From Synechococcus elongatus PCC 6301 (GTDB taxonomy: Bacteria; Cyanobacteriota; Cyanobacteriia; Synechococcales; Synechococcaceae), in NCBI RefSeq assembly GCF_000010065.1, contig NC_006576.1, positions 2,070,001-2,102,000 on the forward strand: 32,000 nucleotides of DNA, given 5' to 3'. This document shows, in pieces, positions 20,227 to 26,305 of the stretch (positions are counted from its first letter, which is position 1; each line of letters opens with the position of its first letter). The notes under the pieces were generated by a model. That model did no database searches. It saw only the letters and a list, made by a program, of their open reading frames with translations, and had not been told where the DNA came from. The position numbers and the translations under genes are program-made.

Positions 20227-20562
20227 TTGGCTCAAAAGAAAAATAGCGATCGCATTGTTTGGCGCGAGTTTGGTAGTCAGGATGCTGCGTTGGAACGAGG
20301 GCAGCCCGATCGCCCGCCCGCTCAGCATGATCTCCGCATCCAGTGCAGCCGTAAGGGGCGCGGCGGCAAAACCGTGACGATCATCACGGGCTTCCAGCAT
20401 CGGCCAGAAACGCTGGCGAGCCTGTGCAAAAAACTGAAGGCGCGTTGTGGCAGTGGCGGTACCGTTAAGGACGACACGATCGAGATTCAGGGCGACCACC
20501 GTCAAACCCTGCTAGAGGCACTCAAGGGCTTGGGCTACGGTGCAAAACTGAGCGGCGGCTGA
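20227..20562 (+). CDS. SUI1/YciH-family translation initiation factor homologue (probable TTG start)
   Basis: The SUI1 domain (RIQCSRKGRGGKTVTIITGF...KKLKARCGSGGTVKDDTIEIQGDHR...LGYGAKLSGG) occupies the last ~85 codons. There is no ATG between 20116 and the domain. The in-frame TTG at 20227 lies 9 nt after GGAGA (20213-20217) and gives a family-typical 111 aa. The 148-aa version would overlap the trpB start. Confidence 0.75.
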   Translation: MAQKKNSDRIVWREFGSQDAALERGQPDRPPAQHDLRIQCSRKGRGGKTVTIITGFQHRPETLASLCKKLKARCGSGGTVKDDTIEIQGDHRQTLLEALKGLGYGAKLSGG

Positions 20563-20999
20563 AGCTCTGCGCTGGCTTTTTCCTGCAGGAGTCGGCCTGC
20601 TTCCAGAGCTGGTAGGGGGATTCCCTTTTCGGTGGGAATGTAGATCACGGTGCGATCGCTTTGGTTTTGGCTCTCAGCGACACTTGTAATCCAAAGCCAC
20701 TGCAGATAGACCTCGTTCTCTTTCAGGGAATTGCCAATGATTTGGTTGGACTGGGCTAAACCCCGCGCCCGTTCAACTTCGGCTTGGGCTTGAAGTTTGG
20801 CGCTATCCAATTTGGCTTGTGCTTCAAGGACGGCGATGCGGCGAGTGTATTCCGCTTCTTTGAGCTGGGCTTCACCGCGTAGCTTTTGCACATAAATCCC
20901 GTACTGCGGCCCTAGTCCGAGCCAAAGACCAATCAGTAGAACGAGGGACAAGGCGATCGCCAGAATCGGACGCCAAGACGGAGGTGTATTTTTAGTCAT
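20535..20999 (-). CDS. Single-pass membrane protein with coiled coil, resembling the C-terminal part of SPFH/prohibitin proteins
   Basis: 154 aa with an ATG start. TM helix ILAIALSLVLLIGLWLGL, then an A/E/Q-rich coiled coil and ...YLQWLWITSVAESQNQSDRTVIYIPTE. Its 3' end overlaps the convergent SUI1 gene by 28 nt. A decayed copy lies at 25516-25700. Confidence 0.6.
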   Translation of the reverse strand: MTKNTPPSWRPILAIALSLVLLIGLWLGLGPQYGIYVQKLRGEAQLKEAEYTRRIAVLEAQAKLDSAKLQAQAEVERARGLAQSNQIIGNSLKENEVYLQWLWITSVAESQNQSDRTVIYIPTEKGIPLPALEAGRLLQEKASAELQPPLSFAP

Positions 21000-21731: not shown

Positions 21732-22122
21732 ACCTAACTTTTCTCTTTGTTCCAGATCAAAAACAACGTAGGTGGAAAGAATAGACTGATCTCACAAGGC
21801 TTTTTGTGTTGCTGACAACATTTCAGTGACTCAGATTTGATTGAATGCTAGGCGATTTAATCTCACTGTTTCTATACAAGTGATGCAAGCTAAATACCAT
21901 TCCAGTTGAGCAGCTGCAAACAGCTTCAGTATGACCAATAAGATCTCTTTTCAGTTTGCTCTAACTGGGTTGTTGGCTAGGAGTAAATCTGATGAGAAAT
22001 AGCTCTGTAGATACTGTAAAGCAAGGCGTTTCGTTTCTATCACTAGATGCTGCCGAAATGATTGTTCTTGACCAAGGGCAAGCCATAGTAACGTGCCGAT
22101 CGCTTTAACCAACACAAAGGCT

Positions 22123-22221
22123 ATCGCCTAATTCAACCCTCAAGGTTTATCAGCCGTAGCCGTCTTTTTCGTAGTAATTCAGTGCGGCAAGGACTTGGAG
22201 AATCATTAGCTAGCGATCGCG
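22123..22221 (+). repeat. 99-bp direct repeat, copy 1 (begins at a degenerate HIP1 site and ends at an intact one)
   Basis: 88 of 99 positions are identical to 23779-23877 with no gaps. It starts at GGCTATCGCC (a degenerate HIP1) and ends at AGCGATCGCG. Confidence 0.9.
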
Positions 22222-22287: not shown

Positions 22288-22695
22288 TCACTCCTTAAAA
22301 GCTTTCGCCCAGTAATACGGCTGGACCTCCCCAAGCGTCTTGGCGATCCACCTGCGAGCATCTTGAGCGGTGGGCGTGGCGACCTCCACGCTCTCTCCCC
22401 AGTGAAATAGGCGCTCCTGACAGATTCCACACGGGGTCAGGATCATAATTGGGCCATCGCCCGACAACCGCGAGACGCACACCGAAGCCGTGATCCGTTT
22501 GTCTAACTTCACTGCTTCACAGATGGCGCCCGTTTCGGCACACAATCCACCCCCGCCCCACTCAGGCTGGAAGACAACGCTCGTTAGGATCTGACCGTCG
22601 TCCGTGTATAAAGCTGCCGCAATCCCTTCTGCCATTGGAAAGCGTTGTTCCAAGAGATCAATGGCAGCGTCGACTAGCGCTTGGTCAAGCTTCAT
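22288..22695 (-). CDS. Cytidine deaminase-fold zinc enzyme, blasticidin-S-deaminase-like
   Basis: 135 aa from ATG 22695, preceded by GAGGAG with a 6-nt spacer. LCAETGAI (C-A-E zinc/catalytic motif) and PCGICQERL (PCxxC). The overall layout resembles small tetrameric CDA/BSD enzymes. GC-rich, unlike its neighbours. Confidence 0.8.
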   Translation of the reverse strand: MKLDQALVDAAIDLLEQRFPMAEGIAAALYTDDGQILTSVVFQPEWGGGGLCAETGAICEAVKLDKRITASVCVSRLSGDGPIMILTPCGICQERLFHWGESVEVATPTAQDARRWIAKTLGEVQPYYWAKAFKE

Positions 22696-22816
22696 CGCTA
22701 TCTCCTCATTCTGTTGCATTGCCACTTCTCGGCAGCTCAACGTTCCGCTTCAGCCGCTGCGACGCTCTCTCACTCCTAACCGATACCCTTGATACGGTCG
22801 GTGTGCAAGCGGATTG

Positions 22817-23497: not shown

Positions 23498-23722
23498 TGC
23501 ATAACATATATATCTCCGGCTAATGCTTGGATGTCTACTTGTATATCTATAGATGAAATTATTGATGACTTTCCTGATCTAACAGAAGCTGATATCAGAT
23601 TCATCGATCAGCTGATTGAGGTTGCTACACGCCTCAGTAGCAGTAATCCTGATCATGACAAACCTCTACGCATGCTCAACTCTTCATCAAGAGTACGCTT
23701 TCCGGTACTTACGGCAAGTTAA
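23498..23722 (+). pseudogene. Possible remnant of a DUF433-type (antitoxin-like) gene
   Basis: ISIDEIIDDFPDLTEADIRF resembles the C-terminal eeIl-dyP-Lt-edI signature of DUF433. The expected N-terminal half is missing (in-frame stop at 23495-23497) and the tail is unrelated. Weak call. Confidence 0.25.
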
Positions 23723-23778
23723 CCGTCGCGCACAACGCTAGCTGAGATATATGGGTGTAGATGGGCTCGTTGATGGCG

Positions 23779-23877
23779 ATCGCCCAATTCAACCCTCAGG
23801 GTTTGTTGCCCGTAGCCGTCTTTTTCGCAGTAATCCGGTGCGGCAAGGACTTGGAGAATCGTTGGCTAGCGATCGCG
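23779..23877 (+). repeat. 99-bp direct repeat, copy 2 (begins and ends at HIP1 sites)
   Basis: Partner of 22123-22221. It starts at GGCGATCGCC and ends at AGCGATCGCG. Confidence 0.9.
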
Positions 23878-24070
23878 CCATTCAAAATCGGGTCGCCTGA
23901 TCAGGGGACCGCAGGCAAAAAACCTAGGTGCGATCGCCATCTGTAAGTGAAGCTCAATAAAATGATAAACTATCAAAGCTTTCGCGGAAAAGCAGCAGCG
24001 TAAACCTAGGTATTTACAGATAATCTCTAGCTGCTTTCTTCCTGAGAGTTCCAGTAGTACAACGGTAAAT

Positions 24071-25096
24071 TTAGCTAACTTTTCTAGCTTCTATAATGTT
24101 TTTCTCAATGCTTTTAACAACAAAGGGAGATATCTTTGTATGTCTAGGAACAGGAGTAATTCCCTTCGATTGAGGATGCTGCCAAATTTCGTGTCCACCT
24201 CCTTCTCTAATTTTTATGAATCCTTCTCTTTGTAATAACCGGATAATTTCTGATTTCGACAACTCAGAAAATTTAACTATAGAAAAGTTTGATTTGCGAT
24301 TAAAATTTTCTTGAACTTTGGCTTCAAAATTAAGAATCGAATCCTCAAAAAAGGAGCTATATTCGTTAGCAGCAGAAGTTAGGATTTTGTAAACTGGTTC
24401 AACAAGACTGAGGGTTTTGATATTTCTTATCTTGACTTGATAATCTTTAATATAGTGTGACTTCTCAAGCTTTTCTTTAATCTTCTTTTCTAGGTTGTCA
24501 ATCTTAATTGATCCATGTTTGCTAGCCATATTTTCGGTGGATGTAATAATTGACCAATAAATAGATTTTATGTATTCATAAATATTTCTGTCAGTCTTAT
24601 TAGGCAAGATAATAACTATACGAGAGCTATCAAAGCTTGCCCAAAGAACGATCGCTGGTAATTCAGACAAGTTAATCCCAAACCCTTTAGCAGCAATTCG
24701 AGCCGCTTCATGTGCCTGTTTTTTGCCGCAAAAAAGAGTAGAGAGCCAATCGTTACTATCTGCCATGTAAGCATCAATGTCTTCTGCCCCTAACTCCTGC
24801 AAAAAGGCTCTTATTCTGTTGTGAGCGGGTTTTAAAATCTCTTCTATGTATACATGATTAGAATGCAAGAATTTAATGTTTGGGGTATAAGGCAAGTAAA
24901 TATTAGGAGTACGACCTGTTCGGTTATGTAGCCACCAAGCGAGTTGAGGGTTTTGATCGCTTAATGCTGTATCCCATTCATCCAATTCACAATCATGCAA
25001 AAGAAGCGAAGATGACCATATTTTACTGTAATGCTGCCTCAAATGAGAAATAAATCCAGAAACAGCAAAATAAGAAAGGTCAGGAATTGGAATCAT
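24071..25096 (-). CDS. 341-aa protein: unknown 278-aa N-terminal domain fused to a C-terminal HicA/YcfA-type mRNA-interferase toxin domain
   Basis: ATG start. The C-terminal ~63 aa (nt 24074-24262) read LSKSEIIRLLQREGFIKIREGGGHEIWQHPQSKGITPVPRHTKISPFVVKSIEKNI. This fits the HicA pattern (L..xGF, G-[SG]-H, hP.H, I..hh..I). Very AT-rich, with no HIP1. Confidence 0.75.
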   Translation of the reverse strand: MIPIPDLSYFAVSGFISHLRQHYSKIWSSSLLLHDCELDEWDTALSDQNPQLAWWLHNRTGRTPNIYLPYTPNIKFLHSNHVYIEEILKPAHNRIRAFLQELGAEDIDAYMADSNDWLSTLFCGKKQAHEAARIAAKGFGINLSELPAIVLWASFDSSRIVIILPNKTDRNIYEYIKSIYWSIITSTENMASKHGSIKIDNLEKKIKEKLEKSHYIKDYQVKIRNIKTLSLVEPVYKILTSAANEYSSFFEDSILNFEAKVQENFNRKSNFSIVKFSELSKSEIIRLLQREGFIKIREGGGHEIWQHPQSKGITPVPRHTKISPFVVKSIEKNIIEARKVS

Positions 25097-25329
25097 TTTT
25101 GAGTTAACACTTAGAGGTTAATATATAATCGCAGAATTTTACAGTCTCATGATAAGAGCTTGCTACCGAGAGACTTAAATAGCTAGCTAACATATACATC
25201 TCTGACTAATAACTGAATCTCTACTTTAGCCAAGGCTTTCTCCTTTGCTTCATAAAGCAGTACCCCGTTAGGGTTGAATAATCACCACCTTGTAGATTAG
25301 TCCTCTTGTCAAGACTTTGATCTGGCTTA

Positions 25330-25515
25330 ATGGACACCAACACTCCTACCCCCAGACCCAGAAAGCTCCTGGAGCACATCACTAACGTGCTCTAGGTCAA
25401 ACACTGCTCCTACCCAACTGAGAAGGTTTATCTTCTTTGGCTCTGTCGCTGTATCCTATTGCACCATAAGCAACACCCAAGGGAGAGAAGCGACGGAGAG
25501 GTCAATGCCTTGCTC
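25330..25515 (+). pseudogene. N-terminal remnant of a tyrosine recombinase with SAM-like N-domain (integron-integrase-like), in-frame stop and 3' truncation
   Basis: The translation is MDTNTPTPRPRKLLEHITNVL*VKHCSYPTEKVYLLWLCRCILLHHKQHPRERSDGEVNALL. It parallels the conserved N-terminus of IntI-type recombinases (..LLDQ.R..IR..HYS.RTE.AY..W...FI.FH..RHP......EV.AFL). Stop codon at 25393-25395. Homology ends abruptly at ~25515. Confidence 0.6.
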
Positions 25516-25700
25516 TGTGGGATGTAGATCAGGGTGCGATCGCTCTGGTTCTGACTTTCAGCCACGCTGGTAGTCCAGATCCACTGGAGATAAACCTCGT
25601 TCTCTTTCTAAGAATTGCCAATGAATCGCGCAGACGGGACGCCATGAAGGCGATATGTTTCCAGTCATTTCTCTGACTGCAGATAAGGCAAAACTGTTAC
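25516..25700 (-). pseudogene. Decayed partial copy of the 154-aa membrane-protein gene at 20535-20999
   Basis: 25516-25624 aligns with 20631-20740 at roughly 80-85% identity by eye. 25624-25696 aligns with about 20955-21027 (start codon and 5' leader). About 214 bp of the middle is deleted, which shifts the frame. The C-terminal homologous part carries a stop (IGNS*KENEVYLQWIW). Confidence 0.75.
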
Positions 25701-25735: not shown

Positions 25736-26305
25736 TTACGAATGTAGCAGTTGCCATGCTTTATAAAAATTGTTTCTTAAGTGTGATTCAGATTTATCAC
25801 GGATTGTCATTACATAATTTGAAAAATGTTGGTCAATACTATCGACCAATGAATATCTGTCAACAAGAATAAACTGAATCGAGTTGTCTTGAGAGTTGAT
25901 CATGAGCCTAAAGGTAGGCGAGCCATCCTGAAGTAAAACTTTTGTTCGCGTCATCCCAAAGTGAGAAAGTCCACAACGTCCATCTTTATAGAGAATTTTA
26001 ATAAACTCATCCCATATTGACTGCTGATATTGACTTGGCTTGGGAAAAACAGAATTGAAACCTTCTGCGAAAAATTCCTTTGATCTCTTGTAGCTATCTT
26101 CACCCCTGAAAAAGATTGTATAACTTTCAAAATAAGCAAGCGCTGTTTGTAAGACACCGAACCCTGCGTGCTCATGATGATTCAAAATCCTTCCGCAATT
26201 TATTAGCCATCCCCTGACCTTATCTTCATAAACATCTACAATGTCCTCCAACAAACCCGAGTCTAATTTGGTCGAATAATACTTGGGACTAATCTTAAAA
26301 GCCAT
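25736..26305 (-). CDS. 189-aa orphan protein with an Rx4H (HEPN-like) motif
   Basis: ATG start; AT-rich, with no HIP1. The N-terminal two thirds look helical. ILYKDGRCGLSHFG contains R110-x4-H115 (codons 25976-25978 and 25961-25963). No other motif recognised. Confidence 0.6.
   Translation of the reverse strand: MAFKISPKYYSTKLDSGLLEDIVDVYEDKVRGWLINCGRILNHHEHAGFGVLQTALAYFESYTIFFRGEDSYKRSKEFFAEGFNSVFPKPSQYQQSIWDEFIKILYKDGRCGLSHFGMTRTKVLLQDGSPTFRLMINSQDNSIQFILVDRYSLVDSIDQHFSNYVMTIRDKSESHLRNNFYKAWQLLHS

Follow-up and report, generated by a model that had tools for sequence, protein, structure and literature searches.

The genetic contexts in which HicA toxins occur were sorted into 14 classes by Gerdes (2024; PMC10865869), one of which, Class 13 or 'fused HicBA', comprises monocistronic genes joining HicA to a large, mainly α-helical N-terminal region, with a total length of 340-440 amino acids (exemplar WP_067334119.1). 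In the same work CapRel-SJ46 and EzeT were discussed as mechanistic models, and a CapRel-like logic was proposed for the fused HicA proteins of Classes 11-13. A single E. coli gene with a C-terminal HicA, DS-10 ('ZAPB', WP_087897267.1; 472 amino acids), was validated as anti-phage in the DefensePredictor study (2026; PMC13092281), in which protection against phage Bas1 amounted to about 5 logs. Fused HicA proteins lacking a partner are so far represented by this bioinformatic catalogue and this one anti-phage example from E. coli. An initial reading of the locus studied here, made from the DNA alone (the sequence-only reading), took such a system built on HicA to be apparently undescribed; Class 13 and DS-10 both precede it, and the RefSeq name of the protein (WP_011244264.1) is already HicA family toxin.

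The DNA analysed, hereafter the window, is a stretch of 32,000 nucleotides from Synechococcus elongatus PCC 6301, and one of its genes encodes a protein of 341 amino acids that is 100% identical to BAD80144.1 / WP_011244264.1. The features of this gene, in window coordinates, are the following.

24071..25096, minus strand: complete gene for the 341-amino-acid fusion protein (ORF list; exact match to WP_011244264.1 / BAD80144.1)
25097..25191, minus strand: 95-bp upstream region travelling with the gene (blastn homology to the Pseudanabaenaceae locus L001, 88%)
24287..25096, minus strand: N-terminal domain, residues 1-270, known solely in fusion with HicA (profile search, AF2)
24656..24658, minus strand: codon of invariant Pro147 (invariant in 22 sequences; directly precedes the strand at residues 148-152)
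24074..24280, minus strand: HicA module, residues 273-341 (Pfam, PHROG 353, PDB sequence matches, Foldseek, hhalign)
24098-24253, minus strand: match to Pfam PF07927, residues 282-333 (44.1 bits)
24191..24193, minus strand: codon of His302, the predicted catalytic histidine (aligned with His24 of a characterised HicA structure; kept in 21 of 22 family members)
24140..24148, minus strand: codons of Pro317-Arg318-His319 (Arg318 and His319 invariant)

The copy in strain PCC 7942 (ABB58168.1) differs from the PCC 6301 protein solely by P64H, and the ORF is unbroken in both strains. No literature on the S. elongatus gene was found under its putative PCC 7942 locus tags. Its description as AT-rich and devoid of HIP1 was borne out: with 35.3% GC it has the lowest value among all ORFs in the window (52% overall), the stretch 24241-24300 holds 17 G+C in 60 positions, and HIP1 sites are absent from 23931-25535 as against 65 in the window as a whole.

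The C-terminus had been read as a full-length HicA module, and both profile and structure comparisons agreed. PF07927 (HicA_toxin) matched residues 282-333 of the full protein with 44.1 bits (cutoff 27, E 2.3e-11) and the isolated C-terminus with 48.4 bits; PHROG 353, annotated 'toxin', matched the same region (E 5e-14), and a PDB sequence search returned the Burkholderia pseudomallei HicA entries 4c26 and 6g26. In an AF2 model of the full-length protein (pLDDT 78, pTM 0.73) the module folds as α-β-β-β-α, with helices at residues 273-290 and 324-340 and strands at 294-299, 302-306 and 313-317. This modelled unit superposed on chain F of 6g26 with a target-normalised TM of 0.77 and an rmsd of 1.6 Å (Foldseek probability 1.00), and hhalign paired the C-terminus with the HicA set of Gerdes (Table S1) at 98.3% and E 2.5e-14. 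The histidine singled out beforehand, H302, aligned with the catalytic His24 of B. pseudomallei HicA, which is replaced by alanine in the 4c26 mutant, and this histidine, in a G-x-H motif, is retained in 21 of 22 family members. The downstream P-R-H noted at first sight is likewise present as P317-R318-H319; R318 and H319, together with R297 and G299, are invariant across the 22 members. PF07927 matched 19 of 20 homologues, in some cases under its cutoff. Sequence and modelled fold identify the C-terminus as a true HicA module, complete and with its catalytic histidine, and it is very probably an active RNase.

The 278 residues that precede the module had been left without a placeable motif, and they found no match in Pfam, NCBIfam, PADLOC or PHROG; a PDB sequence-profile search with a profile of the N-terminal domain (N-domain) also returned nothing meaningful. 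Modelled alone, the N-domain reached pLDDT 78.9 and pTM 0.79. Residues 1-270 comprise 156 helical and 23 strand residues. The modelled topology has a β-α-β unit, a helical insert (74-138) and a β-β-α unit, after which come one more helix, a strand and the long helix 235-264. Foldseek gave no significant fold match for this model, and the best scores (probability 0.25-0.44) went to thioredoxin folds of the PDI b' type; the marginal matches were repeatedly thioredoxin-fold proteins, namely PDI b', Wind and viral thioredoxin-fold proteins. Pro147 may occupy the position of the cis-Pro loop of that fold, and the site equivalent to the thioredoxin CxxC is occupied by an invariant W41 and a near-invariant D42; a CxxC redox motif is absent and no cysteine is conserved in the N-domain family. 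On account of the topology, Pro147, the position of W41/D42 and the recurrent marginal Foldseek matches, we tentatively propose, with low confidence, that the N-domain adopts a cysteine-less thioredoxin-like fold. Thioredoxin-like folds without cysteines are usually binding modules.

A Lys/Glu-rich stretch between the two parts had been taken for a coiled-coil linker, an assignment that the model contradicts. In residues 198-227, modelled with pLDDT of about 92, a helix of 13 residues is followed by a loop and a β-strand, so that the stretch is predicted to be integral to the N-domain fold, and the connector in the model is instead the long helix 235-264 followed by a short coil. The pTM of 0.73 for the full-length protein, compared with 0.79 for the N-domain, weakly suggests a defined arrangement of the two domains.

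A HicB-like antitoxin joined to its toxin, a possibility raised along with the sequence-only reading, was not borne out. No HicB or DUF1902 Pfam family matched the protein at E values up to 10, and hhalign of the N-domain with 32 HicBs (Gerdes Table S1) gave a probability of 0.8%, against 98.3% for the HicA positive control, which rules out the N-domain as a HicB. HicB chains were also missing from the Foldseek matches listed, among which the HicA chains of 6g26 and 4p78 were found. No DNA-binding domain of the HTH or RHH type was matched in the protein by Pfam or NCBIfam families.

The fusion is conserved well beyond S. elongatus. A search of a 5.8-billion-protein database returned ten homologues with identities down to 38%, all with a precomputed HicA domain, and the full-length homologues align from residue 1 through to the end. 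When the 270-residue N-domain profile was run against 1.84 billion cluster representatives, 24 matches were obtained, two of which were repeat-protein false positives; all full-length matches (326-402 amino acids) end in HicA, amounting to about 20 full-length homologues, and the short ones resemble contig-end fragments. Neither a free-standing N-domain nor one attached to another effector was found among the 1.84 billion representatives. Family members with a named organism are all cyanobacterial: S. elongatus, a Pseudanabaenaceae MAG, Nostoc sp., Umezakia/Chrysosporum ovalisporum and a Cylindrospermopsis plasmid. A scan of a genome collection returned the Pseudanabaenaceae MAG alone, and missed S. 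elongatus itself. No relatives were found in phage genomes or viral contigs, a result that is neutral as to a role in defence and provides no link to phages.

Relative to the 89%-identical Pseudanabaenaceae copy, dN/dS was 0.11 for the whole gene (N-domain, 0.09; HicA, 0.19); both domains are under purifying selection, as in a functional gene rather than a decaying one. Divergences of the N-domain and of HicA were correlated (Mantel r 0.80 over 20 sequences, with none of 5000 permutations as high), which fits a single ancient fusion that would have been inherited as a unit. These data also bear on whether the ORF is an artefact, in which a frameshift or the assembly has joined two genes, or a pseudogene in decay; its unusual length for a HicA protein might point that way. 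The architecture recurs, however, in about 20 full-length homologues whose assemblies are independent and whose identity falls to about 30%, the whole-gene dN/dS is 0.11 and neither PCC 6301 nor PCC 7942 has a broken ORF, and we therefore discard an artefact or relic, whose probability we regard as negligible.

The GC content of the gene is about 35%, against 52% and 45% in its two hosts. When the S. elongatus locus was compared with the Pseudanabaenaceae locus by blastn, homology was confined to 25191..24071, that is, to the ORF and 95 bp upstream, and ended exactly at the stop codon. The conserved 95 bp presumably hold a promoter or regulatory region, and a simple scan found no sigma-70 consensus site in them. 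Such restricted homology, together with the deviating base composition, sustains the earlier suspicion that the gene is probably foreign. Since its GC content is foreign, the S. elongatus and Pseudanabaenaceae proteins share 89% amino acid identity and DNA homology does not extend past the ORF and its 95 bp, the gene appears to move horizontally among cyanobacteria as a one-gene cassette, which tends to land in defence islands.

At its S. elongatus position, the gene lies among a GST, a cupin, a deaminase-like ORF, a DUF433 fragment, repeats, an ORF of unknown function of 189 amino acids and a large chelatase-like gene, and this neighbourhood is not a clear defence island. On either side of the low-GC patchwork around it stand two paralogues, one of them degenerate. 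Of the two neighbours recognised from the sequence, the downstream repeat element stood (23750-23900, with a second copy at 22119-22221; the repeat bears HIP1), and the supposed recombinase remnant did not: this upstream remnant is a degenerate paralogue of a 154-amino-acid gene at 20535..20999, which belongs to PHROG 11227 'protease'.

The absence of an adjacent HicB-like ORF, noted originally for the immediate flanks, extended to all loci searched. A HicB profile, built from Class 2 HicBs only, gave no match to any stop-to-stop ORF of at least 35 amino acids in the window or in 19 related loci. No neighbour gene is conserved across about ten independent contexts, and the neighbours in the window have no homologues in the 19 fetched loci. 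Two further candidates were considered and rejected. A 31-amino-acid ORF (25104..25199), a conceivable mini-antitoxin, does not form an open frame at the homologous locus, which is 89% identical; and the 189-amino-acid upstream ORF (25736..26305) is unrelated to an ORF of the same length at one related locus (L007) and has no homologue in the related loci.

An antitoxin acting from elsewhere in the genome has also to be weighed, in which case the HicA domain would be neutralised in trans, for example by the HicB of a canonical host pair (ABB56900/ABB56901), and the N-domain would have an unrelated role. S. elongatus PCC 7942 does encode a canonical Class 2 hicBA (Table S1, PMC10865869), whose HicA is 33% identical to the fused HicA domain. 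The gene was, however, transferred alone between distant cyanobacteria, and no HicB was found in the 19 related loci. Type II antitoxins are usually cognate-specific, for which reason cross-neutralisation is improbable at an identity of 33%. We consider neutralisation in trans very unlikely.

Many homologous loci lie in defence islands or mobile regions, as emerged from a survey for such settings of the kind suggested along with the sequence-only reading; Hma, DpdA/HerA, type IIG and AbiEii contexts were found. On a Nostoc/Umezakia contig (L009), two paralogues are placed between genes of an Hma helicase-methylase-ATPase system, flanked by HmaC (E 2.4e-93), HmaB (E 7e-74), a four-helix gene of the 23S-rRNA-IVP type and an SNF2 helicase matching BrxH, DrmD and HmaA models; one of the two copies has Asn in place of the catalytic histidine, and dN/dS between the paralogues is 0.6, indicating relaxed or diversifying change. 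Another copy (L004) adjoins DpdA, HerA-like genes, a GajB-like UvrD and transposases, and a third (L006) directly follows a type IIG restriction-modification gene, with PIN/DUF433 and PLD-helicase genes nearby. One copy lies 13 bp after a UvrD-like helicase gene (L012), one follows a 1691-amino-acid DEAD+UvrD helicase (L016), and HerA and a KAP NTPase lie near another (L014). The copy on a 146-kb Cylindrospermopsis plasmid (L011) is near AbiEii and an integrase. Helicases of UvrD/RecQ types occur in four contexts, those of L001 and L016 alone being clearly homologous, and the window has none; a helicase was accordingly not accepted as a part of the system, and the linkage is an unproven lead.

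Free HicA is normally toxic. Because of this toxicity and of the missing antitoxin gene, the N-domain would be expected to restrain the RNase in cis; with no conserved partner acting in trans, a toxic HicA would need such control. By homology, the HicA domain is very probably a His-dependent, translation-independent, mRNA-cleaving RNase; it would be held inactive in cis by the N-domain, which would also act as the input domain, a logic established for the fused toxin-antitoxin CapRel-SJ46. The trigger would most plausibly come from the phage, either as one of its components or through its interference with a defence system encoded alongside, upon which HicA would be released, RNA degraded and the infected cell arrested (abortive infection). 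This mechanism, in which one chain combines a sensor and an RNase, is plausible and fits the defence-island contexts; no PADLOC model matches the protein. The obligate fusion, the purifying selection on both domains, the acidic N-domain beside a basic HicA and the similar pTM values of the full-length protein and the N-domain also speak for it, if indirectly, and DS-10 is an experimental precedent for the architecture. For the chain as a whole, a self-inhibited single-chain RNase toxin, probably serving in phage defence and moving horizontally as a one-gene cassette, is a reading to which we give about an even chance. A specifically anti-phage role is held with less confidence than an active HicA RNase.

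The exclusive linkage of the N-domain with HicA would fit a substrate-targeting role equally well. As a targeting or adaptor domain, the N-domain would bring the RNase/dsRNA-binding HicA domain to one particular cellular RNA or complex, where RNA would be processed in a regulated manner, and the protein would serve neither as a toxin nor in immunity. An obligate, co-diverging fusion is what a targeting domain would produce, a possible non-catalytic thioredoxin-like fold (compare the peptide-binding PDI b') would suit the binding of a partner, and the S. elongatus copy is found amid metabolic genes. The distribution of the family is very patchy, however, with 24 representative clusters in 1.84 billion proteins, and the foreign GC content, the transfer as a single gene and the recurrence in defence islands and in an Hma operon are typical of conflict systems, not of housekeeping. 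The relaxed or diversifying change between the Nostoc/Umezakia paralogues (dN/dS 0.6) also argues against it, and we consider targeting an unlikely explanation of the fusion.

The pI of the N-domain lies between 5.0 and 6.9 in 20 of 21 sequences and that of the HicA part between 9.7 and 11.5, a pattern of acidic N-domain and basic HicA that resembles antitoxin-toxin pairs; the S. elongatus N-domain is near neutral (pI 6.8). The same architecture and charge pattern would be expected of a fused toxin-antitoxin serving as a selfish stabilisation or stress module, in which HicA would be set free once the N-domain is proteolysed and defence against phages would not be a dedicated function. EzeT is a precedent for a cis-antitoxin without a known phage role (cited in PMC10865869), and one copy lies on the 146-kb Cylindrospermopsis plasmid. 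Most copies are nonetheless chromosomal, beside restriction-modification, Hma or Dpd-like genes, and a single polypeptide affords no classical post-segregational killing unless the stabilities of the two domains differ. Stabilisation is in our view improbable, to the same degree as targeting.

Within the reading of a self-inhibited toxin employed in phage defence, a more specific version can be formulated. The N-domain could be an undescribed, cysteine-less thioredoxin-like sensor confined to cyanobacteria, which would free the HicA RNase either on binding a cyanophage protein or on detecting that a phage inhibits a restriction or Hma-type system next to it. This version is speculative and rather doubtful. 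If true, the gene would be a cyanobacterial single-chain abortive-infection 'guard' module, able to intercalate in operons of other defence systems, of which the Hma locus of Nostoc/Umezakia would be a case. That locus, with two copies in Hma and one of them without the catalytic histidine, suggests a link between the toxin and its host defence operon. The family offers a compact example, of 341 amino acids, in a genetically tractable model cyanobacterium, and because the N-domain occurs nowhere else, a phenotype could be attributed to the input domain. Few anti-phage systems of cyanobacteria have been characterised so far, and the family would add to their number.

Compared with the systems already described, the protein shares the HicA fold, the catalytic histidine and PF07927 with canonical type II HicAB (B. 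pseudomallei 6g26, E. coli), from which it differs in lacking a hicB gene, any HicB-like domain and a DNA-binding domain for autoregulation; unlike canonical HicAB, its HicA is the C-terminal fifth of a 341-amino-acid protein. With CapRel-SJ46 and EzeT it has in common a toxin and a regulator in one polypeptide and no separate antitoxin gene. This likeness is a functional analogy only: neither shows a sequence or fold relationship, their toxin chemistries (tRNA pyrophosphokinase in CapRel-SJ46, UNAG kinase in EzeT) are unrelated to the RNase considered here, and the domain order of CapRel is the opposite. DS-10 is likewise a single gene in which a long uncharacterised N-terminal region precedes a C-terminal HicA; it is, however, an E. 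coli protein of 472 amino acids whose N-terminal region is unrelated to ours (hhalign probability 0.3%, best BLASTP E 1.2).

A further close counterpart is Class 13, all of whose architectural traits are displayed by the 341-amino-acid protein when compared by description (solitary gene, helical N-terminus, HicA at residues 273-341), and the CapRel-like cis regulation proposed for that class is the same as the one favoured here. The Class 13 exemplar WP_067334119.1 is not among the named family members listed, and the 'HicB' of the class name does not suit the present N-domain, which has no similarity to HicB. The kind of system is therefore already known, with one validated example in DS-10; the novelty lies in the characterisation of one cyanobacterial family of N-domains, which is linked to HicA exclusively and whose members are intercalated, at one locus, in an Hma operon.

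The segment upstream of the fusion gene (341-aa product, HicA toxin domain at its C terminus), which the sequence-only reading had taken for a recombinase remnant, proved instead to be a degenerate, internally deleted paralogue, with blocks of 84% and 73% identity, of a 154-aa gene matching PHROG 11227 'protease' (E 1e-43). Because the two copies bracket a low-GC patchwork of ~4.5 kb, they suggest an old insertion or duplication event. The features concerned lie in the window as follows.

20535..20999, 154-aa gene
22119-22221, copy of a repeat element of ~100-150 nt
22288-22740 (-), 150-aa cytidine/dCMP-deaminase-like ORF
23531-23722 (+), 63-aa ORF, convergent with the fusion gene
23750-23900, copy of the same repeat element
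25430-25700, degenerate paralogue of the 154-aa gene
25736-26305 (-), 189-aa ORF of 37% GC, upstream of the fusion gene and on the same strand

The two repeat copies are 88% identical and contain HIP1 (GCGATCGC) sites; one is placed directly 3' of the fusion gene, the other directly 3' of the deaminase-like ORF. The latter scored just under the Pfam cutoff (23.4 bits against 25) and has a host-like GC content of 56.5% despite the surrounding low-GC stretch, being flanked by a GST gene (40% GC) and a cupin gene (45% GC). The antitoxin-like family DUF433 is matched in its C-terminal part by residues 1-22 of the 63-aa ORF, at an E-value of 7.5e-4 that falls short of the Pfam cutoff; this ORF is probably the remnant of another toxin-antitoxin pair. 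Searches of Pfam, NCBIfam, PADLOC and PHROGs gave no match for the 189-aa ORF, and none of the 19 related loci contains a homologue; the named sequences of its 90%-identity cluster are all from S. elongatus.

Among the related loci, the fusion gene was directly adjoined by a helicase gene in four independent contexts.

L001:957-2543 (-), RecQ-like helicase gene (Pseudanabaenaceae MAG)
L016:628-5703, gene of a 1691-aa DEAD+UvrD helicase
L004:9111-11420, helicase gene
L012:5510-7987, helicase gene

The N-terminal half of the 1691-aa protein and the RecQ-like helicase are homologous, at 34% identity across 386 aa (E 4e-47); the window lacks such a helicase. At another locus, L006, the fusion gene and a type IIG restriction-modification gene sit between two ORFs of the same length, one of which matches DUF2726 weakly, while the other gave no match to any family.

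L006:79-882, 267-aa ORF
L006:5389-6192, 267-aa ORF

Two paralogues of the fusion gene occur on the Nostoc/Umezakia contig CAWUDK010000016.1 (L009).

L009:8001-9005, copy 1
L009:12138-13142, copy 2

They are 83.5% identical to each other, with a dN/dS of 0.6. In the second, the catalytic His is replaced by Asn, and given this substitution the copy might act as an inactive decoy or regulator. Both are intercalated among the genes of an Hma (helicase-methylase-ATPase) defence system, with HmaC and HmaB, as well as a 23S-rRNA-IVP gene and an SNF2 helicase, flanking them.
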